NCBI GenBank assembly: GCA_963662665.2
Contig: CAXXJS010000025.1
Span: forward strand, 1 to 64,000
Length of the DNA stretch: 64,000 bases
Reading direction: 5' to 3'
Origin: Candidatus Latescibacterota bacterium
GTDB lineage: Bacteria; Latescibacterota; UBA2968; GCA-2709665
Position 1 is the stretch's first letter; each line of letters begins with the position of its first letter. Below, piece by piece: positions 12,379 to 40,407 of the stretch. A program made the position numbers and the translations under genes. The notes under the pieces were generated by a model that was not told the origin of the DNA, did not search any database, and saw only the letters and a list, made by a program, of their open reading frames with translations.

Positions 12379-12420
12379 CTCATGTCAAAACTTACCGCGA
12401 ACCGACATCGTTCGAACGGC

Positions 12421-15133: not shown

Positions 15134-15338
15134 CCGCCGAGAGCTAGCCTTGATTCGTAATTCTTCGGGGAAGTGAAACCGAATATATGCAAGTAGATAA
15201 AGGCGATTTGACTTCGGATTACCAGGATACACCAGGTCACTGGACGTGAACTGAAAAAACGTCCTTTTGGACGACCATTACGCCCCGTTTCAGGGATTTT
15301 CGTCGCGTCGCCGAGTTGCTGTTTTTTTCGCATTGGAG

Positions 15339-15912: not shown

Positions 15913-15932
15913 ATACTGATCGCTGCTTTTCC

Positions 15933-16985: not shown

Positions 16986-17005
16986 GTTTGTGCCCGCCTC
17001 AGCAG

Positions 17006-19242: not shown

Positions 19243-19266
19243 GTATGTGTCCTTGATAGACGCAAC

Positions 19267-19750
19267 GTCTCCCCCAACCCCCTGAATTCCCCTATTTCCT
19301 TGCCCTTTTTCTTGCTTCGCCCAAGAAAAAGGGCGAAAAAGAAGGGCGCCGCTCGGCGCGGGGCCGGTTTTTCCGTGAAACACCTCATAGGCGCAAACGG
19401 GAATCCGGTGCCCTGTCACGGGACCCGCCCATCCCAAGCGATGTTGCCGGACGGAATCGCACGGAAAAACCCCCAACACCACCACCCGCCGCGTGATTGG
19501 ACGATGCGACGTTACGAACAACGAAAATGTCTCACCTTTAGCCGCGGAACGTGGCTCCACCCGCGTCCAATTCGTATTCGTAGGGGCAACCCTTGTGGTT
19601 GCCCGCCTAACGGGTGTTTCGGATCTTACCCTTTGTGTTTCTTTGTGCCTTTGTGTCTCCGTGTGAGCTAATTTTCGGTTTCGGCTGAGAGCCCACGCCT
19701 GGTTTTGCTCTCCCTCTCCCCACGGGAAAGGGGGCTGCGGGGAGAGGTTT
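19267..19750. repeat. Composite REP-like element, copy C, with a structured insert
   Basis: C-rich block 19267-19303; 13-bp hairpin 19302-19334; 12-bp inverted repeat 19366-19377/19460-19471; REP GTAGGGGCAACCCTTGTGGTTGCCC at 19580-19604; CTTTGTG tandem; CCCTCTCCC/GGGAAAGGG hairpin. Confidence 0.75.
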
Positions 19751-19767
19751 GCTCCACGTCCGCCCGT

Positions 19768-20760
19768 CTACACCTCAATCCAGCTTCCCTCATTGGACGA
19801 CGCGACGACCGCATCCAGGATCCGGAGCACGCGAAGACCGTCCGATACCGGAATGGGAGCAGGTGCTCCCGAGTTCGCGGCCTCCACGAACGCGGCCAGC
19901 TCCCGGTAACACATCTCCTCAAGGTTATCGCCGGGAATGCGCAGGACCGTGGGATGCGCGTATTCAGGGATCACCCGGCTTTCCACGGTCACAACGTCAC
20001 CCTTCCAGTCGCCCCGGACCCGCCCTCGGGTTCCGAACACGTCTACGAAATCGTAACCGACGCCGGAGGCCTGCGAGACGGAAAACGTCGCGACGGCGCC
20101 GCCCTTGAGCCGTACGGTATAGGCCGACGTCTCGTCCGTCCCTCCCGCATTCCATCGTACGGTGCCCGAAACGGATTCCGCATCGTCTCCCGTCATCCAC
20201 AACACCTGGTCCGTCAGGTGGGAGCCCAGAAAGAAGAGTTGACCGCCGCCTTCCGTCCAGGGCCCTCCGAGCCACCCTCCCAGGGGACCGCCGCCCTTGC
20301 CGGCCGCCACGAAGCTGACGTCACCCACCGCACCCCGGTCCAGCAGCGATTTGATGTACATCCGGCTGAGCGAATAGCGCATGCAGTAACCCACCATCGC
20401 CACCACGCCGTGCCTTTCGGCGGCTTCCACCACCTCAGCGCCCTCCGCGGCATTCAGTCCCATCGGCTTCTCGATAAAGACGTGCTTCCCGGCGCCGATG
20501 GCCGACAGCGCCACGGCCTTGAGGTACCGGTGCGGAACCGCCACGACCACCGCGTCCACACATGAGCTTTCCGTGACTTCCGCCACAGAATCGTGCACCG
20601 CTTCGATTCCGAAGGCGTCAGCCACCTGTCGAGCCCTGGCTTCATCCACGTCCGCGCACGAAACCAGCCGGGCGGAATCTATCCGTGAGAGTGCCGGGGC
20701 GAGATTCATGCGGGTCTGCCCGCCGCATCCAACCAGCCCGACACGCAGTGTATCCGACAT
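19768..20760 (-). CDS. Gfo/Idh/MocA family oxidoreductase
   Basis: VGLVGCGG, GKHVFIEKPM, GGGQLFFLGSHLTD; AGGAGA RBS. Confidence 0.9.
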   Translation of the reverse strand: MSDTLRVGLVGCGGQTRMNLAPALSRIDSARLVSCADVDEARARQVADAFGIEAVHDSVAEVTESSCVDAVVVAVPHRYLKAVALSAIGAGKHVFIEKPMGLNAAEGAEVVEAAERHGVVAMVGYCMRYSLSRMYIKSLLDRGAVGDVSFVAAGKGGGPLGGWLGGPWTEGGGQLFFLGSHLTDQVLWMTGDDAESVSGTVRWNAGGTDETSAYTVRLKGGAVATFSVSQASGVGYDFVDVFGTRGRVRGDWKGDVVTVESRVIPEYAHPTVLRIPGDNLEEMCYRELAAFVEAANSGAPAPIPVSDGLRVLRILDAVVASSNEGSWIEV

Positions 20761-20831
20761 GGGAGTCTCCTGAGGAAGGTACGTTCGAGGATTCTGCTGT
20801 ATTCAGCCGGCCAGAAACATCGCGAAGCGCA

Positions 20832-23800
20832 TCACAGACCCAGCATCGAGAGCGTCCCGTCCGAACAACCCAGCAGCAGGCGACCGCCCTCGTGCGGCGT
20901 CAGGGCATGAATCTTCGCCTCGGTACGGTGGATGCCCGTCGTTCGTCCGTCTGCGTCAAGAATCCATACGCTCCCGTCTTCACATCCGGCGACGAGCTCC
21001 GGCGCGCCGTCCTGATTCACGTCGGCGGCGAAAAGCCGGCGCACCGGAGCTCCCAGATTGCGCCGCCATCGCTCGGCCCCCGTATCGTCGAAGAGGTAGA
21101 GGTAGTAACAATCCGACCCGGCCGCCACCTCGGGCTTCCCGTCGCCGTCCACGTCCACCGCGGCGACCGCGTGTACCTCTTCGCCCACGTCCCGCGTCCA
21201 CAGTGCCGCCAGTGTCTGACCGTCCAGCCTCAGCGCGTGTACCTTCGACCTGGTCGTTCCACACGCGATCAGATTGTCGCCGTTCCCGTAAAGATACACG
21301 TCGCATCCGGGCAGCATCGACGGCCATCCGTCCAGCCCGTTGCTGGCGATCTCATTGCCGTCCGCGTCCAGCACGTAGCAGGTCCCACCGCAGGATATCC
21401 GGCCGGGCCCACCGACCACCTCAGGCAGACCGTCTCCGTCCACGTCCGCCAGGCAGAACGGGTCGAAGATACCGTAAATGAAGAAATTCCAGCGCTTGTT
21501 GCCGTCCGCGTCGAAACAATGAAGTTGCCGGTCGGTGACCGCCGCGAGGATATCGGACCGTCCCGTGCCGCGAAGGTCTGCTGCTTTGACCAGTTCGACT
21601 GAGGAATTGCGGGTATACCACGCCCATCCTCCGCGGAAGATCTCGAACCTCTGGGACCACTGCACGGCGCCTCCGCCATCCAGGTAGTAGAGACATCGGT
21701 CATTGGCGCCGGCCGCCACCGGACCGCTTTCGTCGCCGTCCCGCCCCGCCGCGCACACCGACAACACGGCATCCCCGGCCTGAAACGTCCACATGGCTTC
21801 TCCTTCCCGAGACAGCGCCACAACGCGCCCATCCTGCGTCCCTGCAACCACGCCACCTCCCCTGAGCGACGCGCATCGCACGGCGGAGCCGAAGTCGTGC
21901 GACCATACGGGACGCAATGATGGCGTCGATCCCTTCCGGATGGACGCTCCCGCACCGGGACGCCATTCAGGAAGTCTCCGCAGCGTTGGTGAAATACGTG
22001 CGCCGTCCCCGGCCGCCAGGCGTACGTGATGCCGTCCGGCCTGCAACGTTTGCTTCTCGCCGCACAAAACGGCGTTTGCGGTGTCCTTCGTGTCCGCCAC
22101 GCCGACGCCGGACTCCAGGTCCAACTCTATGGACACCGGCGCGTCGCTTTCGAAAAGCGTTTTGTCTGTGCGTAACAACGCGCCTCCGAGCAGGGCGAAC
22201 CAACCCTCTCCGATCGCGTATACGTCCGCCCCTCCCGATACCGGGCCGGCCGCAAACGAGCCGTCCGCGCCGCCGGTCCCGATGAGCATTCGCCCCTCCG
22301 ATCCTTCGATCAGGACCGCGGTCTCTCCAATGCGCCGCATCCGTACGTCCACGGGTTTCGCATCGTTTGTCGCGTAGAACAGATTGATGAACGTGTGCCG
22401 GTCGTCCGCCTTCATCTCGCGGCTGACGGACTGGCGCAGGATATTGACGAAATCATCCGAATACGGATAGTCTTTCCACCAGTGTCCGAAGGCCTCCCAG
22501 TCCCGTTCCATGGTGACCCGGTCGCCTCCGGCGCCTTCCAGGACGAATCGATCTTCCCGCCCGCTGTCCGGGTCGCGCTGCAGGGTCTCCAGCCGATCCC
22601 CATCCAGCGTCGGCGTCCCCAGCGTTCGCCAGTTGCATTCCAGCGCGAACGTCCCCGCCTTGCTGGCTTCGACCTCATCGATGACTACGAAAAAACGCCC
22701 CTTGCGCCAGACTACGTTTCTTGTCCATCGCGCTCCCCATTCCCCATCCATCGAGGTCCGGCTCATGCCCGTCCGATCCAGGTCCGCCATGCCATCCAGT
22801 CGGCACAGGGCGGGCACCCCCCACGGCTCTCCGTTCCGGACCGCCGTCACCCCGTTGTGATGTTTCAGGGTAGGCCCTTCCGTGTAAGAGGCATCCACGA
22901 GAAACACACGGTCGTTCGCCGAAAACTCCACGATGGTGTTTCCGTCGTCGTGCCCGTGGTTGCCGTATGAAATCCCGTGGATCATCAGGTACTGGTCGTC
23001 CCGGTCGAACCCCTCGCGAAAACAGACCGTATCGAACGCCGCGTCGCGCGGCAGATTGAGAGGCTTCACTTCAGACGGCCGCGCCCTGGGGTCGGCGGCG
23101 AAGTCGTAGAAGCCCTTCGCGACCTCCAGCACTCCCGCACCGGCCATTTCCGAGGGCGTCTCGGGCTCCAGACCGTCGCCGTAGTATCTCTCGAATCCAT
23201 GGATGAGCGACACCCGGTCCGAATGTGCGCGAATCAGGAACTCCGCGCGGCCGTCCCGAAGCACGTGCCCCGCCTTGGCAAGGAAACTGGCGGGCGGCGG
23301 CACCTGGCACCCCCCCGAGTCGCCAAATGGCGGCATCGCTCCGCGGTTGTTGCAATACATCACCGCCTGGTCCAGCGACCGGCGGCAATTCCCGTTCTCG
23401 ACGTACGTCTGGTCTCCGCTGGCCAGCGTATAAGTCAGAAGATGGTCCAGTGTGGTCCACTGGTAGGCATTCGCGTCCTCGGTGGGCTTGAACGATTCCG
23501 CCTGCCCCTTGAACAGGTCCGCGGACGCCGCCTGCCACTCCTGTGCCTCCGGCATCCCGTAATGCGTGGCGAAGTACCGGCCCGCGAACCACGAAGACAG
23601 ACCCACCAGCGTCTGGTGGTTCTGACGCACCATCCTGTGACCCACTCCCTCACGAAAAAATCTGTTGTACGCGCCTTCGTGGGAATCCATTAACCACAGC
23701 AGATAGCGCGTGATCCGCAGGCGGTCCTCGTCTGAAAATACCGGACTCTCCTCGATCAGGTCCCAGATGACCGCCAGCCACCACACGTTGAAGTGCGCCA

Positions 23801-24533
23801 TCACGCCATGCTCACCCATCTTCAGGTGCGCATCCACCGCTTCGCGTAACGCCTTCGCATGGACCTCGAACCCCGTCCGATGATACGCATAGCCCTGCCT
23901 TCCCGCTTCAGTAACCATCCCATGCCCCGCCCCGGCTTTCGAGGCGTGCGGCTGGCTGACCTGCCGGATGTAGTCCTCCCGCCGCTCGTCGAGCCAGCCG
24001 CGGGCCGGACGGGTGAGCGAATCGAAGGCCTGGCCTTGTCCGACCTCCATCAGCCATACGAAACTCACACTCGCGTCCGTGCCGACTCGCGCCATAAACC
24101 GCGACGCCGCGCGGTCCAGCCCGGCTTCGTCGCTGGCTCCAAGCAGGACGACGTTCTTTCCGTTTCCCGACAGGTTGTGAAGCGTCCGCAACGTGTACCC
24201 TCCCACGCCCGGATAACAGAGATCTTCGATGGCCCACCACTGGTAATACAGCCAACGGATGAAGGGGTTGGCGGCCATATTCCCCAGCGCAACAACGTGT
24301 GTATCGAGCAGCGGCCCGGAGGCCGTCACGTCATCGGCGCAAACGACCGGAAGACGGGCGCCCGTGGCCGCCTCAATCCGTTCGACGATTCGCACTGCCA
24401 ACCGCCGCTGCGCCGGATTCTCCCCGATGACGATCTTCCCTCGGGGCTCACCGTTCGCCGCCAGCACAGTTTCAGTGTGCATTTCCTTCAACGTATCGAT
24501 GTTCAGTCCGACCGACCCCTGATCCGAGTCCAT
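20832..24533 (-). CDS. Giant heparinase-like + beta-propeller protein (paralog 2)
   Basis: YPGVGGYTLRTLHN, WDLIEESPVFSD, RQNHQ, NHGHDDGNTI, DVDGDG blades. ATG 24533 after AGGAGG; no signal peptide. Confidence 0.75.
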   Translation of the reverse strand: MDSDQGSVGLNIDTLKEMHTETVLAANGEPRGKIVIGENPAQRRLAVRIVERIEAATGARLPVVCADDVTASGPLLDTHVVALGNMAANPFIRWLYYQWWAIEDLCYPGVGGYTLRTLHNLSGNGKNVVLLGASDEAGLDRAASRFMARVGTDASVSFVWLMEVGQGQAFDSLTRPARGWLDERREDYIRQVSQPHASKAGAGHGMVTEAGRQGYAYHRTGFEVHAKALREAVDAHLKMGEHGVMAHFNVWWLAVIWDLIEESPVFSDEDRLRITRYLLWLMDSHEGAYNRFFREGVGHRMVRQNHQTLVGLSSWFAGRYFATHYGMPEAQEWQAASADLFKGQAESFKPTEDANAYQWTTLDHLLTYTLASGDQTYVENGNCRRSLDQAVMYCNNRGAMPPFGDSGGCQVPPPASFLAKAGHVLRDGRAEFLIRAHSDRVSLIHGFERYYGDGLEPETPSEMAGAGVLEVAKGFYDFAADPRARPSEVKPLNLPRDAAFDTVCFREGFDRDDQYLMIHGISYGNHGHDDGNTIVEFSANDRVFLVDASYTEGPTLKHHNGVTAVRNGEPWGVPALCRLDGMADLDRTGMSRTSMDGEWGARWTRNVVWRKGRFFVVIDEVEASKAGTFALECNWRTLGTPTLDGDRLETLQRDPDSGREDRFVLEGAGGDRVTMERDWEAFGHWWKDYPYSDDFVNILRQSVSREMKADDRHTFINLFYATNDAKPVDVRMRRIGETAVLIEGSEGRMLIGTGGADGSFAAGPVSGGADVYAIGEGWFALLGGALLRTDKTLFESDAPVSIELDLESGVGVADTKDTANAVLCGEKQTLQAGRHHVRLAAGDGARISPTLRRLPEWRPGAGASIRKGSTPSLRPVWSHDFGSAVRCASLRGGGVVAGTQDGRVVALSREGEAMWTFQAGDAVLSVCAAGRDGDESGPVAAGANDRCLYYLDGGGAVQWSQRFEIFRGGWAWYTRNSSVELVKAADLRGTGRSDILAAVTDRQLHCFDADGNKRWNFFIYGIFDPFCLADVDGDGLPEVVGGPGRISCGGTCYVLDADGNEIASNGLDGWPSMLPGCDVYLYGNGDNLIACGTTRSKVHALRLDGQTLAALWTRDVGEEVHAVAAVDVDGDGKPEVAAGSDCYYLYLFDDTGAERWRRNLGAPVRRLFAADVNQDGAPELVAGCEDGSVWILDADGRTTGIHRTEAKIHALTPHEGGRLLLGCSDGTLSMLGL

Positions 24534-24546
24534 TTTTCCTCCTGCC

Positions 24547-27500
24547 CTACCGGCCGTCATCCACGCGCCACCGGCTGATCTCCCCCTGGTCCGTCGCCAG
24601 GATTACGGTTCCGTTCACTCTCTCTATGCAGGTCGGCCTCCCGGTGAACCTGCCCGACCGCACGACCTCCCCGCCGCCATCCAGGACGACAAGCGTCCCG
24701 TCTTCACAGCCAACCGCAACCCTTGCGCCGCCCTCGACCCCCAGTGCCGCCATCACTGTCGGCGGTGATGGCAACCGCCTCGACCAGATCATTTCACACC
24801 GGTGATCCAGAGCGAGAATAAGGCCGCCTGACAACGCCGCAAGCAACTCTTTCTTTCCATCGCCATCCAGGTCGACAACGTCGAAGTCCCGTACGTTGTC
24901 CGCCGGAATGCGCTGCCCGGGGCCAAGTTGAACGTTGTGCAACGCCCGCCCGTCCTCAGACCAGACAGTCACCCGGTTCCATGTCCCGTTGATCTCACTG
25001 ACCACTTCCTTCCTGCCGTCCCCATCCAGATCCTCATTGATGATGTGCTTGCGGCTCATGCAGGCCCACCCGCCGATATTCGTATGTCCGTCCGGCACGT
25101 CGCGGAAGGCGCGCTGTTTCGGATCCAGTTCCCGGTTGTTCACCACGGCCATCGCGTGGGAATCCGTGGGCTGCCGCGCAATCAGCAGATCGATGCTGCC
25201 CTTCGGTCCGTCGATCAGGGCGAACCGGGAACCCGGGCCCCAGAATACCGGGAGCCGTTTTACCAGATTCCCGTCCCGATCCAGAATCTCGAGCGTACAG
25301 GCGCTGCCCACGAATGCCTGGCTCCTGCCTTCCAGAAAAACGCCGGAATGGAGTCCGTGAACCCCCGCGTGTCCCGGCGCCGTCTTAAACCAGTAGGGTT
25401 TTGCGGCCATGAACACTGCGGAGTCTTCCTCGGAGACGAAGTCCCACTTCCGGTTGCCGGAGTGCGGATCGACCGCGATTACCTTTTCATCCTCGCATCC
25501 GGCCAGAAGGAGGTCGTGCTCCCCCCACCAGTGGAGAAGACGGATGGGACCGTCCGTCGGCAGGGTTCGAAGTGCTTCTCCATCCCGGGACAACACGTGA
25601 ATTTTCTCAGCCTCTGCCGCACAGATCCGCGTTTCCCCGCCGGAGTCGACGGCGACGAGGTCCACAACCGCGCCACCGACGCAGGATACGAAAACCGGGG
25701 CCATGGCAGGGACGTCCGGGAGAGCGGGCGAAGGCGCGGCCGCTGCAAGCCGTCTGGCATCCCGGCCCTGCTCCAGAAGGCCGTCGAGCCGCGCCGTAAC
25801 CCTTTCAAGCGCGGCCGCGTCGGGCGCCGCGCCGGTAATTGAATGCCTTCCCGCGGGGATTCGGATGGTCGCCGGGCCCTGTCCATCCCCCCCGTACTCC
25901 GAAACGCTTCCGCCAACGCGCACGCCGCGTGGATCGGAAACGGTCAGCAGGATTTCGGTCTCTTCATCCGCGACCACCTCCATCGCGCCACTTTGAAAGT
26001 CCCAGTCGACCTGCACGGGCACGCTTGCGCAAAACAGCGTGGCGCCCAGAGACGCCCCGGAAAGGTTGACGCCGTGCAGATGGGTACCGGCCAGCACGAC
26101 CAGGTCGCCGTTCAGACCCTCGTATTCGCCCACGGCGGCCACGGCAGGCTCCGGGAGCGCAAGTGCCGCGGCGTTTTCGTCCAGCCGCGCGCACGTCGTG
26201 GCATCCCCTGCCAGCAGCGAAAAGATGCATCTCTCGTCTCCCTTTGCTACTCGTCCCCGCCAGATCATACGCGCCTGACCGTCCGCAACCTCGGTATCCA
26301 ACGGTTCCGACGTGCGTATCCGTCCTGCATCCCGGATACGCACGGCCCCTCCCTCCGGCAGCGCCTCCCACGCACCCTTTCCCTGCCACAGCACCTCCAC
26401 TTCCAGTTCCTCGCTGTCCTCGCTGAACGCCAGGTGGTCCACAAACAGCGCGTAACGCCCCACCCGCTGCGCCAGCGTTCTTTGCCACACGCAGAAGGCA
26501 GCCTTCGGTACCTCGGCCGCGATCAGGGCGGTCCTCCCCACCACGTTCCGGTACTTCAGCGCCGAGTCCATCGCCACCACCGGTTCCACCGTTCCCTCCG
26601 AGCGGGTCAACACCTGGTTCAGATAGCCTTCCAGCAGCGTTTCTCCATCCAGCCGCAGTTCAAGGACGACAAAGGTGTGATACGCGTTCCGGGAGGCACC
26701 GTTCATCCCCTTCACCAGGATGAAATCGCCCGTTGAATCCGCCGCGCTCCGAAAACTGCCGAACAGAAAGGAGTCCTCCAGCGGCAGTCCGCTGTTTCGG
26801 CCCCGCCACATCGGTTCCGGGATCGGATGGATGGACCACCTGTTTACCAGGTCCGTTGGCAGCCGCGGCTCGATATCGTCTTCCGGCCAGAAGGACTGCC
26901 CCAGCCGGAAGACGTCAAGGTCCATCCCGGTCCGGCGAAGGTATTCGCGGTAACGGCCGTCGCCCGTGAGATAGGCGGCTTTGTTGAGTAATCCGATGGA
27001 CGCGGAATTCAGGGCCCAGTCGGGCTCGCGTCCCGAGGCGAGGATCTCCTGCCCGCGAAGCAGGGTGTCCATCACGCCGTTTTCAATCGGCTTCCGGTCG
27101 CCCGTAAGCAGCATATAGCTGAGAACAGGGGCCATACCGGTATTGTACCAGAACAGATTGTCGTGCTCCCCGTCAACCCACGCGTGACGATGCAGAGATG
27201 CGAAATGCCACCGGGCCGCCTCCATGGATTGCTCCCAGAGCGGGCTCGGGTAGCAGGTCTGAAAGTATCGTCCAAGGCAGTAGAGCGATATCGCGGACCA
27301 CTGTCCGTGCCGCGATCCCACGCTTTGTGGCGGGTCTCCGAATCCCCTCGCTCCGCGCCGCGCATTCTCCGCGACCTGCCGCCGCGCGCCCTGGTCCTGC
27401 GCGTGACCGAATTGTGCGGCAAAAGCGTTCGTCACCCGCAACCGTTCGGCGTCCGTAAATACCGGGCTCTCCTCTATCAGATCCCAGTACAGGATCATCA

Positions 27501-28263: not shown

Positions 28264-28307
28264 CGGATCATTCCCTCCGTTACATACGGACTTCGCCTGC
28301 TTCCGAA

Positions 28308-30275
28308 TCAATATGCGTGTACGGCGTGGCCCTGCCCCTGGAACCAGATCACGTCCAGCACGTACCCCAGGGCAACGGCCAACGCATAACCGACAATGGT
28401 CCCGATAAAAAACGGCACGGTCCGACGGTAAAGCAGCATGCCGCCGGTTTTGATCACAATCAGTTTGCAGACCCATGCGGCAAAGATGCTGAATGCCGCG
28501 TGCCTCGTCATGCCGGTGTACCCCACCGCCAGCCCGGCAGGGTGTACCGGCCACCAGTTGAACCGGTATCGCAGGAACGCCAGCAGGGCCATCCCCGCCG
28601 CGCCGGCCGCAAAGAGGATGAACGGCGCGGCATGAACGGGGTCCGGGCTGCGCATGTGGCTCACGTATCCGTTCACGCTCGGCACAGTTCTCCGGAAGAG
28701 CGCGATACTACCGAAATTGTACGCCCCGCCCGAATACCCCCAATAAAGTGTCAGGGCCACAGACGTCGCGATGCTCGTCAGCAGCCCCAGCCCCACAACC
28801 CACCCCAGCCGCCTCCGGTGCCGTTCCACCCTTTCGGCCAGCTTTGCAATCTGCGCGAAAGCCGGCATGAACAAACCCATGTGGTCATTGGCGAAAACAT
28901 TGGTAAACGCCATGGCCGTGAGCCCCGACGCCGGAATGGACGCCGCGCCTGCGGTGCCCAGAATGAGACCCTGGGCGCTCTGCGGCAGGTTGACGTAGAG
29001 CAGGCCGGTCTGCGCCACGATCCGCGCGAGACCCAGGTAACTGATAAACAGCAGCACGGTCAACGCCGTGGACAGAAGCAGTCCCATCCCGGCAATCCGC
29101 AACCAGCAGATGACAAAAGCCACCCCCAGAACCAGACCCCACACGGCCCATCGGTACCGCATCATCTCCCCGGCGTCCTCTGCTCCGTCCGATCGACCCA
29201 GCGCCCGGCGAACCACACGCCCGAGGTGTCCCCGGGCCGTCCACAGCGCCAGGCCCACGTAACACATCATCGCCCCGCCGCCCTGCCACGACACGTCTCC
29301 GCCCGAGAACCCCGCAACGCCAAGTCCAACCCTGGCGAACGCCGCGATCTCCAGAATGTAGAACAGATGAAACAGCCAGATACTGAGCAGCAGATCCAGG
29401 CCCGTCAGGTACGCGAACCCGATCGTATAGAAATTCAGGCTCACGTGGACCATCGAGTACTGCGTAAAGTACACCCACAACTGCTGGTGAAACAAACGGA
29501 TCATGGGAAACCCGTGCACGAAAGCCGGCACGAGGTTCCAGACCTTGATGGCCAGTGCGGCCGACAATCCCGCAATGAACAGCCGGTTCCGCAACAATCC
29601 GGCCCACTCGCCTCTGCCTGCGGCCCCCTCCGCCATGTCCGCGGCCACCGCGGGAATGGGATAGGCCAGCCGTTCGTGCCCCGACCACTGCCGGTGAAGC
29701 ACTGCAACCGTACAGAACGAAACCAGCGCCAATCCGCCCAGCAGCGCCGTCCACCAGAAGAGGGGAACGGCCCACTCTCCCCAGGGAATCCCTTCACCAG
29801 GTGGAAGTCCCTCGAAGAGCCATCTCATGGCCCCCTGCGCGTTGGACGGCACCATCCATCCGGGCACGTGGGGCAGGAGGTACTCTCCCCACTGATTCTC
29901 CGGCGTGGCGAGATAATGCGGGATGGCCAGCATGCCGATCCAGGTCGTGGACAGACCGAACGTCGGCACCATTCCCCCCGCCAGACCCGCACACAGCGCC
30001 ACCAGGAGTTCCGGGCCGGACATCGCCAACCTGGGAATAAACCGCCGGAGGGCCGGAGTCGCCAGAACGAGGATCAGGAACGGCACGAACACGCCCATTG
30101 GGAAATGGGTCCGGTTCAGCCACGATCCCCGGATGATATAGAGCGAGTGCAGGCTCCAGAAATTGTGCAGAGCGGCAATACCCAGGCCTACGCTCAGGGC
30201 GCGCGCCGAAACCCCGCGCATTGCCAACTTCGTGCCGCCTGCTTCCGCTTCACGTCGGCCGGCAGGACTCGACAT
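28308..30275 (-). CDS. DUF6785/DUF6784-like polytopic membrane protein (OPT-like putative transporter)
   Basis: Many hydrophobic segments; YLATPENQW, HERLAYP, RIVAQTG, WWPVHPAG motifs shared with 35026-37047. Confidence 0.75.
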   Translation of the reverse strand: MSSPAGRREAEAGGTKLAMRGVSARALSVGLGIAALHNFWSLHSLYIIRGSWLNRTHFPMGVFVPFLILVLATPALRRFIPRLAMSGPELLVALCAGLAGGMVPTFGLSTTWIGMLAIPHYLATPENQWGEYLLPHVPGWMVPSNAQGAMRWLFEGLPPGEGIPWGEWAVPLFWWTALLGGLALVSFCTVAVLHRQWSGHERLAYPIPAVAADMAEGAAGRGEWAGLLRNRLFIAGLSAALAIKVWNLVPAFVHGFPMIRLFHQQLWVYFTQYSMVHVSLNFYTIGFAYLTGLDLLLSIWLFHLFYILEIAAFARVGLGVAGFSGGDVSWQGGGAMMCYVGLALWTARGHLGRVVRRALGRSDGAEDAGEMMRYRWAVWGLVLGVAFVICWLRIAGMGLLLSTALTVLLFISYLGLARIVAQTGLLYVNLPQSAQGLILGTAGAASIPASGLTAMAFTNVFANDHMGLFMPAFAQIAKLAERVERHRRRLGWVVGLGLLTSIATSVALTLYWGYSGGAYNFGSIALFRRTVPSVNGYVSHMRSPDPVHAAPFILFAAGAAGMALLAFLRYRFNWWPVHPAGLAVGYTGMTRHAAFSIFAAWVCKLIVIKTGGMLLYRRTVPFFIGTIVGYALAVALGYVLDVIWFQGQGHAVHAY

Positions 30276-30300
30276 ACAGCGTTTTCCCTCGCGTGCGCGT

Positions 30301-33300
30301 TCAAGACACGACCTCCCGGCCCACGGGCGTATTCAGTTTCGCCTCCCCCTGCCGGGCATAGTCCGTCTTCGTTTCCGGAGGCATTGTCTTCCAAACCAGA
30401 AAGAGCTTGCGGAGGTCGTTCAGGAAGCCTCGATTCACCCGCTGCCAGGAGTTCACGTCTCCGCTCAGGCGATGGATTTGGACTTCAATGCGGTATATAT
30501 CGTGTTCTCCCGTGGGAATCGCATGCATCTCCACGTCCTGGCTGATCCCCATATCGTATGGCGCCAGCCACATCCGCAACCCGATCTTGTATCCCGTACC
30601 GGCGGGAAGCGGCTCGGACTCGAAACGCACGTCCCTCGAAACGAACCGGCCCAGGGAACCTTCGCCGTACGACTCGAAACACCGGAAGAGATAGGAATAC
30701 ATACCGAGGGCTTCCGATCCCGCCAGGGTAAACGGAAAGTCGAAAAACCAGTCGTCGCCCTTCGGATGCGGAAACTGCCACCGTCGGGTCACGTCGGGAA
30801 CGGACATCTGCTCGGCCTTCCTGGCCGGATAGAGCGTGGACAGGAACACCGCGATCATCACCAGCAGCGTGGAAGAGACCGCCGACAGCGAAGAATAGTT
30901 CAATGACAACCCGCCAAGCGCGCCATGTTCGTACAGGAACATCGCCACTGCCTGGCCGATGAGGTAACCGAACGCCGCGCCCAGCGTGGCGAACACGGCG
31001 GCTTCGGCCAGGAAAAGCGCGGAAATGTGGCTGGGCGCCAACCCCACTGCCGAATAGACGCCGATTTCCCTGAACCTTTCGTACACCGCGCCCATCATCG
31101 TATTCAGCACGATCAGCGAGGCAATTACCAGCGGGACGAAGAGATTCGCGATGCCCGAAAGCGAGGTGGTGCCGATGGAACTGTATACCGTCACCTCGTT
31201 GCCGATCCCAACGAACATCGTCAGCGCAACCCGGGACATAAAGTCCTCGATCTGCCCCCGGACGTCCCGGCTCGGGTTGCCCTGCGCATCTCTGAAATCG
31301 GTGACTGCAATCGATCGGAGCGTACCTCCCATTTCAATCACGAATTCGTACGGAAGCAGCGCAGTATTGCTCGCGTCCAGGTGGACGAACGCCTCGATCG
31401 GCTCCGCGCCCATCAGTCTCGGATCCTGGCTCAGGTTGCGCCAGTCGCTCGTGCCGGCTGTCTCCATCGTGGTGTCAATGGGGGTGAGTCGTTCGTCGTC
31501 CATATCCTCCAGTCTGTCGACCGCCCTGGAGTCCAGAATGCCAATAACGGCAAGCTCCACCCCCAGCATGCGAACCCGTGCCCGGCCGGCCTCCACGTTT
31601 TCGGGAGAAATCCCAACGAGCTCCGCCAGTTCCCCGGGCAGGATGACCGCGTGCCGCTCCCCTTCACGGAACCACCGGCCGGCCGTCAGCAACCGGTCCA
31701 TACCCATCACCCCGGGTTCCTCCGGCGTAACCCCCAGCAACCCGTTTGCGAAACTCCGCCGGCCGCTTTGCGGCTCTTCAAAGTCTATATAGGCCCGCTC
31801 CCCCCGCTTTTCGGAAATGTAAAATGCCCGGGGCGCTACCCGGGCGAAACCGCCGAAATGACTCTCCATATAGTTCAGTACGGAAGGCTGCATTCCCCTC
31901 CAGTTCCTGTCTCTCACCAGCGCACCCTCGTACGGTGGCCTATTGTCCCTGGGCAGCTTGTAGAAACGCAAATAGGTCTGTACAGAGGTGAAGGAAAGCA
32001 CCGTAAACGTAAGCAAAGTCAGCGTGACCGCCGTCAGTCCGCTGCGCAAGGGTCGCTTCCGCAGATTCGAAACCCCCAGCGTAAATGCCACGACTGTTGC
32101 CGAGATCCGCCCAACGTCCTCCTCGTACACACCCGTAGCGGACTGCTTCAGACGCCTTACCTGATCGGCGAACCTGGACACCACGATCACCATTGCAACG
32201 CCGCCCAGACACAGAATCACAAAAGCCAGAAAGATGATGTAAGGAGAACCGGACAGCTGGAACGCTGGATGCACCCACCGGAGCGCAAGGAACATGGCCA
32301 CGAGAATCCCGGCGAATCCGACGATCCGTCTCTGGACGTCGGGAAATCCGAAAAACAGCCGCTCGCAGAAGAACGAAAACGGCAGCAGCAGGACGAAATA
32401 GAAAATGACGCCCCGCACCGTGTCGTTGGCCGTCTCCTTTACCTCGGGGTAGCCGCGCGCCTCCAGCCCCCACGCCTCCCTCGACGCCGCAATGAACCGG
32501 TCGTAGCTGCGGTCTTCCAGGTGACGCTGCGCCTCTAGAAGGGATGCGCGCGCGCGGTCGTGCAGCCGGGTAAGCCGCTGGTTCTCCACGCCGTAGCGCG
32601 CCAGTTGCTTCATCCGCACGTCATCCACGATCCACATATCCCGCGCCGCCCGGTAGGAAGGCAGGGTAATCGCGCTTCCGTCCGGGACGTAGCCAACACC
32701 CATGGAACGTTTCACCGTCGCCGCGTCCACCCGCCGCGGAGCGACGGGATTGGTCAACAGGTCTTCCGGCGCGTTGATAAGCAGGTACTTGATTCCGAAC
32801 AGCCCGCTGCTCATCAGGATCTTGATCCGTTCACCGGGCGGCGCGAATGCCACCGACGCCTGGGTGACCTTTCCCTCCTTCCGGCCCTGGTTGGCCACGT
32901 AACGAAATCCGTATTCTATCGGTTCGCTGTTGTCCCTTCCCAGTACCTTCATATGGTCCAGCACGGACAGATAGCTGGAATCTACAATCTCGAACAGGCT
33001 CAACGACCGGCACCTGAAAAGCACCCCCATCATCTCGTTGTCCCACCACCCGTATCCCTGAACCAGGGGATACTTCCCGTTTCTTCCATCCGAACCGGCG
33101 CCATCTATTCCCATATCCGGCGCCGAGACTATCCGTCCCTCCGCGTCGAGTTCGTATGCCAGAACCTGATTTGAAAAGCGGTTTCTCACAATATCGAATT
33201 CAAACCGGCCGGTCTGTGCGACCACATCCCTGGATCCGTACAACGTCCCTCCGGATGCCGAACCTTCGTAAATCGGGCCTCTGGTGGTCTGTGTGACCAT

Positions 33301-35013
33301 CAGCGTCCGGACGCCCGCCACGCTCACCGGCCCGGGCTGTTTGTACGTCACGAGCGCGCCGGGTACGGGAACCCGCGGAATCGCGAAATCCACGTCCCGG
33401 TCGAACCAGAGAATGCGGCCGGACAGACGATGCCCGCGGTCCATCAGCCGAAGCTGGGTTTCCCGGAAGAAGGCCGGGTCGTTCCCGGCCCTGATCATCA
33501 TGGAAGCCAACGACCGCACCTGGTCGGTCAGCCGGTCAAACGCCATGGCCTCCGGAAGATCGAGCGGCGTGTCCGTGCGAACACGGCCGTCGTACAGCGT
33601 CACCAGCGTCATGGCCTCCTGGCCGACGAATACCGCCGCCTCGCTCTCCAGGGCCAGGGGAACCGGCATGAACGACGTCCAGGGTCGCTTGGCCGGCGCC
33701 ACCACGTCTACGTAGCGCGCTTCTCCGGGGAAGAGCGTCGTTGCATATTCACGGAGCCTGTGGGAATAGGGCGTCAGCAGATTCTTGAGGTATTCGTCCG
33801 TCGCTTTGCCCGGATTGTAGAACGTGCCCATCGCGAATCCGCCCATCTGCCGGCTTCTGCTGGACAGGTCGAGTCCAATGAAAAGGCTGAAGTCGATCCG
33901 TTGGGCGTCAGGAATCTTGTCCAGGAAATAATCGCTCCTCCGGGAATGCCTGAAGAGGAAATCGTTGATTCCCGACAGGCCCTCGAAATGAGCCGAGGTG
34001 GCCAGAAAGAGAAACGAATGCCTGGAACCGTAGTGCTTCAGAGACCGGATCACCTCCAGCATCGCGGCAACGCCCGAGGCGCTCTCGGCGCCCGGGGCAA
34101 GCGCCGGCACCACGGACATCGCGTCCAGGTAGGCGCCGACGACAATCAGCCGGTCCTTCCACCTTCGGCCGGTCCCACCGGGTATGTACTCGTCCGATCC
34201 CGGCAGATATCCGTAGACATTCGCCGCCTCCACAGTCTCCCAGTCCATCCGGGCCGTCAGGTGCGCCCTGGCGTCCCCCATTTCAACCCGCTTCAGGAGG
34301 CGTTTCGCATCCTCCCGGTTAACCCAGAACCGGGGCACATTCACCGGTACCTCGAGAAGCTTGTCCTCCGCCTCCCCGCGCGTTACGTTTCCGTCGTCGA
34401 AGAACAGAATCGCCTTCGCACCCAGTGCGAGCGCATTCAGGTAGTTTTGCCCGCAGCCGAAGTCCATCAGCACCACACTGCCTTCCACAACCGCACCGTT
34501 GAAATCCGAAAACTCGCCCTTGCGTCCATAGATCAACGGCCCGGTAACACCGTCTGCCGGCAGCGTGGAGGTACGCACGTCGTTCGGCCAGAGGCAGTAA
34601 ACGGGCACTTTCTCCCCCGTGTTCTCCACCTTCAACACACCACCTCTGTCGATCGGCACGGTCACGTCGAACGTCTCCGTGGTAATTCGCTCCAGACCCA
34701 TCGCCTCGAATTGCGACCGGACGTAGTCCCGCGCGTGGCGCTCTCCGCCGTACCCCACCACGCGAGACGGCATCCGTGTCATCGCCGCCACATGGGACCG
34801 TACCTGTTCTTCGGTAATCGCATCCGCGACCCGTCGAACCGCCCGATCTTCGGCCGAGAGATCACCACGCACCAGTTCCGGAGGCGCCGCCTGCCGGATA
34901 TGGAGTGTATCCCGTATCACGTCGGACACTTCCTCGGGGTCGAACACCACCACGAGTGCGAGAACGCCAAGCGTCAGAAGAACGAGAAGAACCCTGTTGA
35001 TAACTGCAAACAT
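30301..35013 (-). CDS. 1570 aa fusion: PA domain + degenerate M28 peptidase fold + TM bundle + MacB/FtsX-like permease
   Basis: SRVVGYGG, GPLIYG...GSVVLMD (PA), GAYLD...PGAESASG (M28-like), RKRPLRSGLT and NTMMGAVYERFREIGVYSAVG (FtsX). Confidence 0.8.
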   Translation of the reverse strand: MFAVINRVLLVLLTLGVLALVVVFDPEEVSDVIRDTLHIRQAAPPELVRGDLSAEDRAVRRVADAITEEQVRSHVAAMTRMPSRVVGYGGERHARDYVRSQFEAMGLERITTETFDVTVPIDRGGVLKVENTGEKVPVYCLWPNDVRTSTLPADGVTGPLIYGRKGEFSDFNGAVVEGSVVLMDFGCGQNYLNALALGAKAILFFDDGNVTRGEAEDKLLEVPVNVPRFWVNREDAKRLLKRVEMGDARAHLTARMDWETVEAANVYGYLPGSDEYIPGGTGRRWKDRLIVVGAYLDAMSVVPALAPGAESASGVAAMLEVIRSLKHYGSRHSFLFLATSAHFEGLSGINDFLFRHSRRSDYFLDKIPDAQRIDFSLFIGLDLSSRSRQMGGFAMGTFYNPGKATDEYLKNLLTPYSHRLREYATTLFPGEARYVDVVAPAKRPWTSFMPVPLALESEAAVFVGQEAMTLVTLYDGRVRTDTPLDLPEAMAFDRLTDQVRSLASMMIRAGNDPAFFRETQLRLMDRGHRLSGRILWFDRDVDFAIPRVPVPGALVTYKQPGPVSVAGVRTLMVTQTTRGPIYEGSASGGTLYGSRDVVAQTGRFEFDIVRNRFSNQVLAYELDAEGRIVSAPDMGIDGAGSDGRNGKYPLVQGYGWWDNEMMGVLFRCRSLSLFEIVDSSYLSVLDHMKVLGRDNSEPIEYGFRYVANQGRKEGKVTQASVAFAPPGERIKILMSSGLFGIKYLLINAPEDLLTNPVAPRRVDAATVKRSMGVGYVPDGSAITLPSYRAARDMWIVDDVRMKQLARYGVENQRLTRLHDRARASLLEAQRHLEDRSYDRFIAASREAWGLEARGYPEVKETANDTVRGVIFYFVLLLPFSFFCERLFFGFPDVQRRIVGFAGILVAMFLALRWVHPAFQLSGSPYIIFLAFVILCLGGVAMVIVVSRFADQVRRLKQSATGVYEEDVGRISATVVAFTLGVSNLRKRPLRSGLTAVTLTLLTFTVLSFTSVQTYLRFYKLPRDNRPPYEGALVRDRNWRGMQPSVLNYMESHFGGFARVAPRAFYISEKRGERAYIDFEEPQSGRRSFANGLLGVTPEEPGVMGMDRLLTAGRWFREGERHAVILPGELAELVGISPENVEAGRARVRMLGVELAVIGILDSRAVDRLEDMDDERLTPIDTTMETAGTSDWRNLSQDPRLMGAEPIEAFVHLDASNTALLPYEFVIEMGGTLRSIAVTDFRDAQGNPSRDVRGQIEDFMSRVALTMFVGIGNEVTVYSSIGTTSLSGIANLFVPLVIASLIVLNTMMGAVYERFREIGVYSAVGLAPSHISALFLAEAAVFATLGAAFGYLIGQAVAMFLYEHGALGGLSLNYSSLSAVSSTLLVMIAVFLSTLYPARKAEQMSVPDVTRRWQFPHPKGDDWFFDFPFTLAGSEALGMYSYLFRCFESYGEGSLGRFVSRDVRFESEPLPAGTGYKIGLRMWLAPYDMGISQDVEMHAIPTGEHDIYRIEVQIHRLSGDVNSWQRVNRGFLNDLRKLFLVWKTMPPETKTDYARQGEAKLNTPVGREVVS

Positions 35014-35025
35014 CAGTGCGCCAGC

Positions 35026-37047
35026 CTATTCAATCCACGGGTGGATGCTGTGTCCGGCTCCGGGAAACATGAACATATCTACGAGGAATGCGCCCGTTAT
35101 CCCAAGTACGTGCCCCACCAGCAGGCCGAGGAAGAACGGCTGCGCCTGTCTGAACAGGGTGTTCCCGCCCACACGCAGGATGACCGTTTTGCACGACCAC
35201 GCCAGAAACAGCGTGAGCGCGAAATTCCGTACCAGATCGGTCCCCATTATGGCAAACCCCACGGGATGGATTGGCCACCAGGGAAACCTGTAGCGGAGGA
35301 ACGTGAGAACCACCATAGCCCCGGCCCCGATACCGAAAAACATGATTCGATTCCAGTCGACCTCGAACGGTTCCTTGATCTTGCTTACGGTGTCCGGAAA
35401 ATTGTGCACGCCACCGCAGATGAAACCGTGTCCGAAATTCTCGGCCCCGCCGGTATAACCCAGATAGAGGGTCCCGATAATCACGACCAGGGTCGTTGCC
35501 ACGAACGACAGACCGACCGCCCAGAACAGCCGCCTCCCCCGGTCCCGGATCTGTTCGCCCACCTTGGCCACGTGCGACATTTGCGACGTCGAATTCGCGT
35601 GAATCGGGTACGAAAACAGGAGCGTGGTGAGACTCGATGGCGACACAGCCCTGGCGCCGAGCAGATACACCGAAAAGCTCTGCGCGGTCATCGGCCCCTG
35701 TACATACAACAGGCCGGATTCGGCAATGATTCGCGCCACTCCGATGTAGAGAATAAACAGCATTGTCACCAGCGGAATGGCCATCTGCAAGTCCATTCCC
35801 GCCCTGTTCAGCCACACAACGGCAAATACGAAACCCACCAGAATCCCGACGACCGCGGTCCGATACGACAGCATCTCCCTCGAATCGTCCACCGAATGGT
35901 CCGACCGCCAGGCCTTCAACAGCACGTCCTTCAAGTGGCGCCTGGCCATCCACAGGCCGAACAGCACAAAGACGCAGAACGCCCCGAGCCCCTGCCAGCT
36001 TGACGCGGCGTCGTAGGATCCGTACCGGTCGCCTCGACCTCCGATGCTGTAGCCCACCCGGTTGAAAATGCCGAATTCCAGCACGAACACGGCGAAGAAG
36101 AACCAGACGCTGAACAGAACGTCCAGGTTTGCGAAATAGGAAAACGCAAAGGTGAACGGGTCAATATAGCTGAACATCGGCGGCATATCCCGCCCGAAGA
36201 AGGCGTATACTCGGCCGCGAACCGGCATCTCGGGAAAGGCAGGGGAAATCCATGGCAGCGCATTCCAGAAAATAAAGACAAAAGCGATCCCCGCGCCGAA
36301 CCAGAACAGCTTTCCTCGGGCGAATTTCGGCCACAAACCGCCCGAGTCGGACCCGGAGGCCATCTCCACAATCGGTTCCAGGACCGGGTATCGCAGCCGC
36401 TCGTGCTCCACCCACTGTTTCCGGAGTATCACCGAAAGCGAAGCCGCGGCGAAAGCCAGCACGCAGAACAGAAGCACCCACCAGAACATGGGAACGACCC
36501 ACGCCCCCCATGGAATCGTGCCCTGACCGCCCGGCAGGCCGTTGAAGAGAAGGGTGACGGCGCCGTCCACGTCCAGGGGCGCGACCCACGAAGGCAGGTG
36601 CGGATGAAGCAGGTTGCCCCACTGGTTTTCCGGAGTGGCCAGGTAGTACGGAATGGTTATAAAAGCATACAATGCCGAGATGGGAGCGCCGCCCATCAGC
36701 CCCATCGCGAATATGGTAAGGATCTCCGCGAGGCTCAGCCCCGCGGACCGGACGACCCGCTTCAGGAAAGGATTGAGGGCGAACAGGACGAGGAGGATCG
36801 CGATAAACAGGGCTGGCGAAAGAAATCCGGCCGTCACACCGGACGATCGGATCACGCGGCTGGAAAAGATGCCCCAGCCCTGAATGAACAGGGCTACGCC
36901 AAGACCGATGGCGACCGCCCGCACGGTTACGCCGCGTCGTTCCGGGCCTGACGCCGCTTCAGGAATCGAATCCCGTTGTGCTTGCTGCATATCCTTCTCC
37001 AGGCTTGTCTGCACCATGTGTGTTGGGTCTTCACGCGTCCCGGCCAC
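35026..37047 (-). CDS. DUF6785/DUF6784-like polytopic membrane protein (OPT-like putative transporter)
   Basis: GVTVRAVAIG, YYLATPENQW, HERLRYP, RIIAESG, WWPIHPVG. The start could also be the ATG at 37017. Confidence 0.75.
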   Translation of the reverse strand: MAGTREDPTHMVQTSLEKDMQQAQRDSIPEAASGPERRGVTVRAVAIGLGVALFIQGWGIFSSRVIRSSGVTAGFLSPALFIAILLVLFALNPFLKRVVRSAGLSLAEILTIFAMGLMGGAPISALYAFITIPYYLATPENQWGNLLHPHLPSWVAPLDVDGAVTLLFNGLPGGQGTIPWGAWVVPMFWWVLLFCVLAFAAASLSVILRKQWVEHERLRYPVLEPIVEMASGSDSGGLWPKFARGKLFWFGAGIAFVFIFWNALPWISPAFPEMPVRGRVYAFFGRDMPPMFSYIDPFTFAFSYFANLDVLFSVWFFFAVFVLEFGIFNRVGYSIGGRGDRYGSYDAASSWQGLGAFCVFVLFGLWMARRHLKDVLLKAWRSDHSVDDSREMLSYRTAVVGILVGFVFAVVWLNRAGMDLQMAIPLVTMLFILYIGVARIIAESGLLYVQGPMTAQSFSVYLLGARAVSPSSLTTLLFSYPIHANSTSQMSHVAKVGEQIRDRGRRLFWAVGLSFVATTLVVIIGTLYLGYTGGAENFGHGFICGGVHNFPDTVSKIKEPFEVDWNRIMFFGIGAGAMVVLTFLRYRFPWWPIHPVGFAIMGTDLVRNFALTLFLAWSCKTVILRVGGNTLFRQAQPFFLGLLVGHVLGITGAFLVDMFMFPGAGHSIHPWIE

Positions 37048-37086
37048 CGTACCGCCTGCTTCGGAAGACGGGAAATGACAACGCGC

Positions 37087-37114
37087 ATAATATGGAAATA
37101 TCTCGAATTTTCAA
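37087..37114 (-). promoter_or_regulatory. Putative sigma70 promoter for the DUF6785-FtsX-lyase operon
   Basis: Minus-strand TTGAAA-N16-TATTAT in an AT-rich gap, 40 bp upstream of 37047. Confidence 0.5.
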
Positions 37115-37168
37115 GGGAAAAGGCCCTCCACGTCCGAACTCCGGGCCGTGCTATCGAACCCCGCAGCG

Positions 37169-40363: not shown

Positions 40364-40407
40364 AGGTTTCCCCTCCAGGTGTATTCCCGAGATGTCCCAG
40401 GGATCAC

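Follow-up and report, generated by a model that had tools for sequence, protein, structure and literature searches.

Coupling of DUF6785 carriers of predicted OPT/YSL fold with a MacB-type permease bearing an M28-like ectodomain in Candidatus Latescibacterota

Six co-directional genes behind a promoter-like site

We analysed a window of 64,000 nucleotides (positions 1 to 64,000 of contig CAXXJS010000025.1) from a genome assembly of Candidatus Latescibacterota (GCA_963662665.2; 4.86 Mb, 66 contigs) and focused on six genes that all lie on the minus strand and run in one direction in the order A, Fus, B, Hep1, Hep2 and Gfo. A and B encode membrane proteins of the DUF6785/DUF6784 families, Fus is a giant protein that joins PA, M28 and FtsX domains, and the remaining genes encode two heparinase-like propeller proteins and an oxidoreductase. 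The subject here is the coupling between Fus and carriers of the A/B type, which recurs across phyla, and the role that such a coupling could have. The features of the locus, read from its upstream side, are as follows.

Positions 37169-40531, minus strand: upstream neighbour gene, ~1060-1120 aa, ending 55 nt before the promoter-like site
Positions 37087-37114, minus strand: promoter-like TTGAAA-N16-TATTAT, ~97 nt upstream of the gene A start codon
Positions 35026-36990, minus strand: gene A, 654 aa; DUF6785 E 3.6e-100 and DUF6784 E 3.1e-23 in Pfam
Positions 30301-35013, minus strand: Fus, 1570 aa; PA, Peptidase_M28 and FtsX in Pfam
Positions 28308-30275, minus strand: gene B, 655 aa; DUF6785 E 1.4e-102 and DUF6784 in Pfam
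Positions 24547-28263, minus strand: Hep1, 1238 aa; N-terminal domain, heparinase-II/III-like centre and C-terminal beta-propeller
Positions 20832-24560, or 20832-24533 from the second ATG, minus strand: Hep2, 1233-1242 aa; Hep1 paralogue with an FG-GAP / lambda-carrageenase-type propeller
Positions 19768-20760, minus strand: Gfo, 330 aa; Gfo/Idh/MocA NAD(P)-dependent sugar oxidoreductase, GFO_IDH_MocA E 1.8e-25 in Pfam

The original prediction, made from the sequence alone, had named six co-directional genes in this order with gaps of 12-71 bp, and the coordinates and Pfam matches confirmed it. The intergenic gaps measure 12, 25, 44 and 71 nt, and Hep1 and Hep2 are separated by 13 nt or overlap by 14 nt depending on the choice of the Hep2 start. 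The gene A ATG at 36990 and its GGAG ribosome-binding site are both conserved in an alignment of relatives. The proposed TTGAAA-N16-TATTAT promoter was located at 37114-37087, where it is the sole 10/12 promoter match within 19000-38000, and the number of promoter-like sites in the region was not above chance (5 found, 4.0 +/- 2.3 expected). The exact motif stands at the same relative position in 6 related loci, and, when 10 relatives were aligned, the -35 element, spacer, -10 element and a following GCGCG formed a conserved block within otherwise variable intergenic DNA. The gaps between the six genes contain neither a promoter-like nor a terminator-like site, and the genes probably form one operon from A to Gfo.

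The nearest public relatives of the window proteins and loci come from metagenome-assembled genomes (MAGs) labelled Candidatus Latescibacterota, with a few labelled Gemmatimonadota. The order A, Fus, B, Hep1, Hep2 was kept in 11 close relatives and, with a fragmentary B, in a twelfth (L049), their Fus proteins being 81-93% identical to that of the window; the upstream neighbour precedes A in 10 of these 12. In L049, where Fus is 81% identical, the downstream DUF6785 is present only as two pieces (14800-15204 and 22664-22888) that flank Hep1-Hep2, and this may be a rearranged or broken copy. Among the 35 window open reading frames (ORFs) scanned, which were those of at least 90 aa that passed a GC3 (third-position GC) filter, no ABC_tran, solute-binding or SusC/D-type family was present, just as had been predicted.

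Carriers A and B and the Fus permease

The products of genes A and B are 36% identical to each other. By sequence they belong to DUF6785/DUF6784, and neither matched Pfam OPT (PF03169) at E <= 0.01. We modelled B with AlphaFold2 from a 73-sequence input (pLDDT 90.8, pTM 0.92) and compared the model with the PDB using Foldseek, in which barley Yellow Stripe 1 (YS1; 7wst/7wsr, E 4.5e-8, TM-score 0.64-0.72) was the only confident match and the following matches had TM-scores below 0.2. A second aligner, VIA, run over 48,161 chains, returned 7wsr_A with Z 24.5 and an rmsd of 4.0 over 554 of 600 residues, and the next match had Z 5.1. The claim that A and B are OPT-like was therefore upheld by structure comparison, and, because the model of B matches YS1, both proteins are predicted to have the OPT/YSL fold.

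YS1 is a homodimeric, proton-coupled importer of the elevator type (PMC9691689), and every functionally characterised OPT member is an uptake symporter, with no prokaryotic member biochemically characterised as of 2011 (PMC3061005). By analogy with the YS1 homodimer, A and B probably act as a pair and could form heterodimers. The source genome contains 22 DUF6785 genes, 10 of them paired within ~5 kb, and tandem pairs are frequent in other genomes. Their neighbours in the source genome include Gfo/Idh/MocA, PhyH, amidohydrolase, aminotransferase, UxuA, sulfatase, S-methyltransferase and heparinase-like genes, and such a spread of paralogues over many different catabolic clusters fits a set of substrate-specialised importers.

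Some further observations concern the surroundings of these carriers. On contig C63 (L028:13434-19658), genes for a sugar-type solute-binding protein and an ABC permease come after two tandem DUF6785 genes, all on one strand, and a MalK-type ATPase is close by, so that two kinds of importer stand together in one cluster. Contig C24 has a gene for a group II intron reverse transcriptase/maturase (L030:4718-6088) immediately upstream of two tandem DUF6785 genes. PhyH-type dioxygenase genes recur beside DUF6785 or Hep-like genes, both elsewhere (L031, L033, L039 and L029) and in the window (7582-8445 and 18065-18835), and in L031 the PhyH-type gene lies between two DUF6785 genes.

Fus scored above the Pfam cut-offs for all three of its domains (PA 27.1 bits; Peptidase_M28 23.7 bits, cut-off 21.3; FtsX PF02687 53.5 bits, cut-off 25.5). 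Based on hydropathy and models, the protein begins with a short cytoplasmic N-terminus and one transmembrane helix, continues with a periplasmic PA and M28-like ectodomain of ~830 aa (residues ~30-860) and three extra transmembrane helices, and then forms a MacB-type unit in which transmembrane helix 1 (TM1) is followed by a periplasmic core domain and TM2-4; a conserved domain of ~165 aa completes the C-terminus. The hydropathy peaks of the MacB-type unit lie at residues 993-1011, 1292-1310, 1330-1348 and 1376-1394. NCBIfam and PDB searches matched Fus to MacB, YtrF and LolC, and a Fus paralogue on contig C14 matched MacB_PCD with 38 bits. An AlphaFold2 model of residues 860-1570 (pLDDT 78.7, pTM 0.46, the latter leaving the arrangement of domains unsure) was matched by Foldseek to MacB, LolC/E, YtrF, HrtB and BceB, with MacB at the top (E 1e-11, probability 1.00), and its periplasmic domain matched that of MacB (3ftj) with a TM-score of 0.54. 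Fus is a MacB-type permease of the type VII ABC class.

The PA/M28/FtsX make-up of Fus and its departure from the canonical M28 site had both been proposed, and both stood. On alignment with the Vibrio aminopeptidase, His97, Asp117, Glu151 and Glu152, which we take to be zinc ligands and the catalytic Glu, correspond to Tyr295, Glu310, His342 and Phe343 in Fus, so that 4/4 positions checked depart, out of a ligand set that also includes Asp179 and His256. In 61 Fus homologues, the first position is His in 5/61, the second is Asp in 2/61, the third is His in 61/61 and never Glu, and the fourth is Glu in 0/61. The canonical di-zinc site is thus absent from the Fus family as a whole, and the ectodomain is likely a pseudo-peptidase. 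The replacements are themselves conserved, and the domain may have a changed activity.

The ectodomain family comprises 664 clusters at 50% identity (E <= 1e-30). Its profile matched the PA-M28 aminopeptidase 2ek8 (E 2e-18), nicalin (E 3.3e-7) and the transferrin receptor (E 5e-5), and its match to nicastrin was not significant (E 0.2). Four relatives of 2450-3050 aa (P0138, P0139, P0141 and P0215) carry extra Big_5 (Ig-like) or LysM modules before the M28-like ectodomain, which would fit a binding role of this region.

Fus and its carriers across lineages

A neighbourhood analysis of DUF6785 and M28-FtsX genes across MAGs had originally been suggested. We scanned one genome per species and collected 68 loci, 67 of them with a true Fus homologue. 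At 61 of these 67 loci, the immediate neighbour of Fus was a DUF6785 or A3 gene in the same orientation; 30 loci have one on each side, 14 only upstream and 17 only downstream. The six remaining loci have a divergently oriented DUF6785 (L057), a DUF6785 at a distance of 3.7 kb (L086), a short contig (L063) or a truncated contig (L091, L098 and L101). The MAGs in which the collected loci lie carry the labels Latescibacterota, Armatimonadota, Planctomycetota, Desantisbacteria, Nitrospirota and Omnitrophota, among others. A3 proteins (656-710 aa), which stand beside Fus in some loci, were not detected by the DUF6785 profile alone; they are distant DUF6785 homologues by hhalign (91.5%, E 8.6e-7, 566 columns), and one A3-type relative in L071 gave a match to Pfam OPT, at 19.7 bits and thus below the cut-off of 25.8.

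Natural fusions join the two partners in one chain. In a complete genome of the same class (L109), a single ORF of 2094 aa at L109:1688-7972 has the order M28, MacB_PCD, FtsX, DUF6785 and DUF6784; nine further 90%-identity clusters of 2086-2134 aa share this make-up, and a 50%-identity representative of 2120 aa (P0193) adds one more. The first ten fusion sequences are 59-93% identical to L109. Such a fusion would connect the cytoplasmic C-terminus of Fus with the cytoplasmic N-terminus of DUF6785 and seems topologically sound.

The phyletic patterns also agree. Within 101 genomes of the phylum, DUF6785 was present in 87, Fus in 88 and a short FtsX protein, described below, in 82; each of the three was found in 44 of the 52 high-quality genomes and in none of the 13 genomes of one family (f9). 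Since these 101 genomes are kin, the shared pattern amounts to few independent events. They contain up to 68 first-look DUF6785 candidates each, and the small genomes of the phylum retain one Fus and one to three DUF6785 copies. Taken together, adjacency, natural fusions and shared phyletic pattern give good support to the view that Fus and an OPT-like carrier form a conserved module, in line with the predicted co-occurrence.

An arrangement of this kind could still arise if A and B were stand-alone secondary transporters, Fus an unrelated MacB-like protein and their adjacency a matter of shared regulation only. Such independence would fit the 18 of 22 DUF6785 genes of the source genome that have no Fus beside them, and the scatter of Fus-linked copies in the carrier tree. 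It is, however, hard to reconcile with in-frame fusions kept down to 59% identity at a junction that suits the predicted topology of both partners, or with the pairing at 61 of 67 Fus loci across phyla, and we consider it very improbable. The carrier tree was built with FastTree from 60 of the 96 OPT-like proteins collected, after 36 near-duplicates from close relatives were dropped, and was midpoint-rooted. In it, linkage to Fus marks the A3 outgroup as well as the deepest branches of DUF6785, and unlinked copies are nested among linked ones, which suggests that the link between Fus and the carrier is old and that free copies arose through duplication; given the midpoint rooting and FastTree, this reading is tentative.

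A complex prediction that covered only residues 1283-1570 of Fus together with B gave a score of 0.14, with the mark at 0.32, a value that speaks neither for nor against binding. As a separate observation, the contig ends at the start of C19, the end of C10 and the start of C26 fall inside Fus paralogues, and the last two fit as one gene; the assembly seems to have been interrupted by this repeated family.

Six loci of other lineages share a longer operon, in the order TPR (in some), Fus, A3, a ~300-aa protein and a PqqD-like protein (in some), a short FtsX of ~220 aa and a LolD/MacB-type ATPase. The ATPase is present in 6/6, the PqqD-like and short FtsX genes in 5/6 each, and a GGDEF, PilZ or radical SAM gene follows in 4/6; the ~300-aa protein matched nothing in Pfam or NCBIfam. 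The corresponding parts were found apart from each other in the source genome. Contig C5 has the short FtsX with a LolD/MacB-type ATPase after an S41 C-terminal processing peptidase, contig C19 has a second ATPase, 61% identical to that of C5, beside tRNA-Phe, DUF6785 and a Fus paralogue, contig C34 has the ~300-aa protein with a PqqD-like gene, and a fourth Fus with an A3-type gene spans the C10/C26 contig ends. The tRNA-Phe gene (L024:6649-6724) lies between the C19 ATPase and the DUF6785-Fus pair, and its translation, a 147-aa ORF with apparent homologues in relatives, was rejected as a gene.

An ATPase is hence absent from the window, as had been noted, but not from the genome, in which two candidate LolD/MacB-type genes stand by the short FtsX on C5 and by the Fus paralogue on C19. 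Wherever the short FtsX was found, the genome had one copy of it, while Fus gives one to nine matches, and for this reason the Fus paralogues may share the short FtsX and its ATPase, perhaps as heterodimers like LolC/LolE. In this genome Fus would probably work with the single-copy short FtsX and a LolD/MacB-type ATPase that are encoded elsewhere.

These other-lineage operons bear on a different explanation of the locus, in which Fus, the OPT-like carrier, the short FtsX and the ATPase form an old housekeeping module for peptides or the cell envelope, serving for example the uptake or recycling of peptides or muropeptides or the export or processing of modified peptides, with the lyase-like neighbours being recent and functionally unlinked. 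Their content agrees with it, namely the ATPase, the PqqD-like peptide-chaperone domain, the short FtsX and, in some, TPR, GGDEF, PilZ or radical SAM, as do the S41 processing peptidase ahead of the short FtsX-ATPase pair, the aminopeptidase ancestry of the Fus ectodomain, the LysM module in one long Fus relative, the economy of the small genomes and the restriction of Hep linkage to close relatives. Fusions of OPT proteins with peptidase domains are also known (PMC3061005). The six genes of our locus, however, lie 12-71 nt apart with no promoter-like or terminator-like site between them, their order was kept in 12 relatives despite diverged intergenic DNA, DUF6785 paralogues spread across many catabolic clusters, and the canonical M28 site is not kept, so that trimming of peptides is doubtful. 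We regard this explanation as a serious but rather unlikely one.

Enzymes of the locus and its possible role

Hep1 and Hep2 had been described as heparinase-like propeller proteins of ~1235 aa. Pfam found no Hepar_II_III_C match in either, and the assignment was borne out by profile comparison, in which the Hep family aligned with the DUF4962/Hepar_II_III_C proteins of the window (hhalign 95.1%, E 3e-8, 395 columns) and, against the PDB, with heparinase III (E 1.7e-4). The heparinase-II/III-like homology, which concerns the toroid and sandwich region, falls in the central region and the C-terminus is a propeller, which in Hep2 matched Pfam Beta-prop_CGLA (E 1e-17). At least nine Hep paralogues occur in the genome stretches examined, and their alignment contains a conserved RQNHQT stretch and invariant His/Tyr columns. 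As the original prediction held, signal peptides seem to be absent: 9/9 aligned paralogues lack a signal-peptide-like N-terminus, with the best 12-residue Kyte-Doolittle mean at 0.55-1.97 compared with 2.5-3.2 for those proteins of the window whose signal or anchor is clear, and the conserved N-terminal motif begins at most ~25 residues from the start codon. Hep1 and Hep2 accordingly look cytoplasmic, judging from their N-termini. The best NCBIfam match of Gfo was inositol 2-dehydrogenase, below the cut-off. The upstream neighbour (37169-40531) had no Pfam match and is probably heparinase II/III-like, with an atlas score of 0.98 to clusters that carry Hepar_II_III_C, a value to be taken as a lead only.

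Related genes occur elsewhere in the window. A three-gene module of Gfo/Idh/MocA, DUF4962 plus Hepar_II_III_C, and a Hep2-like protein of 1250-1290 aa is repeated at 8503-17240 and 51273-58663. The DUF4962 protein at 12421-14874 has a signal or anchor and that at 55089-57431 has none, and the Hep2-like gene at 51273-55016 shares 63-64% identity with Hep2.

The likeliest role of the locus would be the import of oligomers for breakdown in the cytoplasm. In the explanation that we prefer, A and B, as secondary transporters of OPT/YSL fold, form an inner-membrane module with the Fus permease and would take up oligomeric breakdown products, be they oligosaccharide, glycopeptide or peptide, from the periplasm and release them in the cytoplasm. 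Fus would not itself transport the substrate; ATP-driven movement of its periplasmic domains would capture, hold or hand over the substrate, or gate the carriers. Hep1, Hep2 and Gfo would then break down the imported material. Import by A and B is favoured by their fold, by the uptake function of characterised OPT members, by the catabolic neighbourhoods and by the signal-less enzymes. MacB-type proteins pass no substrate across the inner membrane and use ATP hydrolysis for periplasmic movement (PMC5985334), and for this reason Fus is best understood as a receptor, feeder or gate that works in the periplasm and is driven by ATP. Peptides or glycopeptides would be as likely a substrate as acidic oligosaccharides, considering the M28 origin of the ectodomain and the PqqD-like and S41 contexts elsewhere. 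The parts that we infer are that the proteins form a physical complex, which ATPase is the partner, what is transported and in which direction, and that the genes are co-transcribed, and to the explanation as a whole, with OPT-like import, Fus as ATP-driven receptor, feeder or gate and breakdown by the operon enzymes, we give a probability of roughly 0.5.

The direction of transport could also be the reverse, if the OPT-like proteins moved a product outward and Fus passed it through the periplasm in the manner of MacB or LolCDE, for secretion or surface assembly. The characterised type VII ABC systems all expel, extract or act in the periplasm (PMC5985334; PMC12646458), the PqqD-like and radical SAM genes nearby in some loci are reminiscent of clusters for peptide maturation, and three loci have GGDEF or PilZ neighbours. 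Against export, the characterised OPT members are all uptake symporters (PMC3061005), no MacA/HlyD-type adaptor or TolC family was present among the scanned ORFs of the window and of six other-lineage operons, and DUF6785 paralogues stand among catabolic and not biosynthetic genes; no precursor-peptide gene was seen, although no systematic search for one was made. Export therefore seems quite unlikely.

Several observations weigh against the preferred explanation of import with cytoplasmic breakdown. Participation in import is not known for any type VII ABC system; MacB-like proteins act in the periplasm or expel and extract substrates (PMC5985334). The context of the module elsewhere (TPR, PqqD-like, GGDEF/PilZ and radical SAM), together with the S41 peptidase beside the short FtsX here, suggests peptides or the cell envelope no less than it does glycans. 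Lyase-like genes are joined to the module only in the 12 close relatives, and other genes follow at a Fus identity of 74% (L046). Propellers of the FG-GAP kind that carry DxDGDG-type motifs occur more commonly outside cells, and the cytoplasmic placement of Hep1 and Hep2 follows solely from their lack of a signal-like N-terminus. The free DUF6785 copies of the source genome (18/22), and the fact that linked carriers do not form one clade in the 60-protein tree, indicate that carriers need not depend on Fus. Finally, Asp297 and His342 are invariant and Glu310 nearly so in a 27-sequence Fus alignment (A6), so that the M28 site may keep some activity. The proposal of a new utilisation locus that joins transport and lyases thus held in part: the module of Fus and OPT-like carriers extends across phyla, but its link to the lyases is confined to Fus proteins of at least 81% identity.

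A more far-reaching version of the import reading can be put forward tentatively. Fus and the OPT-like proteins would form a hybrid machine, in which a type VII mechanotransducer with a peptidase-derived, receptor-like ectodomain is physically joined to elevator-type carriers, sometimes in one polypeptide, and ATP-driven capture and hand-over feed proton-driven import; DUF6785, with ~20-70 first-look candidate copies per genome, would then be the main nutrient uptake route in Latescibacterota, and its relatives occur in Armatimonadota, Planctomycetota and others. We consider this possible rather than probable.

Compared with known systems, A and B share the fold of OPT/YSL proteins (TC 2.A.67; barley YS1, 7wsr/7wst) over almost their full length and at a similar size, and the frequent pairing of DUF6785 genes recalls the YS1 homodimer. 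They differ from that family in their identity of only ~11%, in having no Pfam OPT match and in being linked or fused to a permease of ABC type, an arrangement of which the literature searched gave no report for OPT proteins. Fus resembles type VII ABC systems (MacB, LolCDE, FtsEX, YbbAP, BceAB and HrtBA) in its FtsX domain with a periplasmic core domain between TM1 and TM2, in the LolD/MacB/FtsE-type ATPase of its operon in other phyla and in its possible pairing with the short FtsX, which recalls LolC/LolE. In contrast with these systems, it has ~860 extra N-terminal residues, three extra transmembrane helices and the conserved ~165-aa C-terminal domain, no adaptor or TolC family is found among the scanned ORFs, its partner is an OPT-fold carrier, and the ATPase gene lies outside the locus here.

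The Fus ectodomain is comparable to nicalin, the transferrin receptor and nicastrin in being a PA/M28-type fold without a canonical zinc site on a membrane complex; these, however, are eukaryotic receptors or complex subunits, whereas the Fus domain is fused to an ABC permease and its substituted residues are conserved. OPT proteins fused to peptidase domains (pepsin or S41) have been described in a plant and a fungus and likewise unite a peptidase-type domain with an OPT-family carrier in one protein (PMC3061005). The peptidase of those fusions is taken as cytoplasmic and active, while the M28-like domain of Fus is periplasmic, non-canonical and joined via a whole FtsX permease. Like the SusC/D polysaccharide utilisation loci of Bacteroidota, the locus combines transport genes with enzymes of glycan-cleaving type in one co-directional cluster, and, as the enzymes have no export signals, the substrate would have to come in. 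It differs from them in that the window has no SusC/SusD, solute-binding protein or type I/II ABC importer, and OPT-like carriers with a type VII permease stand in their place.

DUF6785/DUF6784 were named in no paper of the literature searched, FtsX occurred in none of the papers listed for a combination of FtsX, M28 and the PA domain, and the Latescibacteria genome paper (PMC4454575) mentions neither OPT nor FtsX in its main text. The parts come from known superfamilies, and it is their conserved coupling and fusion that appear to be undescribed. DUF6785/DUF6784, families without a described function, hereby gain a predicted fold (OPT/YSL) and a tie to a giant MacB-type permease. A hard link between a type VII ABC system and a secondary carrier would be a new way of building a transporter, because, in the accepted view, type VII systems do not move substrates through the inner membrane (PMC5985334). 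It would also offer a candidate answer to how uncultured glycan degraders with many large, signal-less lyase-like proteins bring their substrates into the cytoplasm, and the natural single-chain Fus-DUF6785 fusions are ready objects for structural and transport work.

Two other features of the window may be mentioned. A multi-haem cytochrome c-type ORF at 3611-4861 (Cytochrome_C554, with paired CXXCH) runs into the beginning of a DUF4838/GH20b-type gene (4575-6683), whose true start is probably further downstream. Positions 43780-50700 form an island of low GC (0.51-0.55, compared with ~0.62) with a DNA methylase (43780-45057), a DarT ssDNA ADP-ribosyltransferase (48789-49472), a Macro-domain protein directly after it (47709-48770) and two ORFs without a family, and from its gene content this island looks like a toxin-antitoxin or defence islet of the DarT/DarG type.

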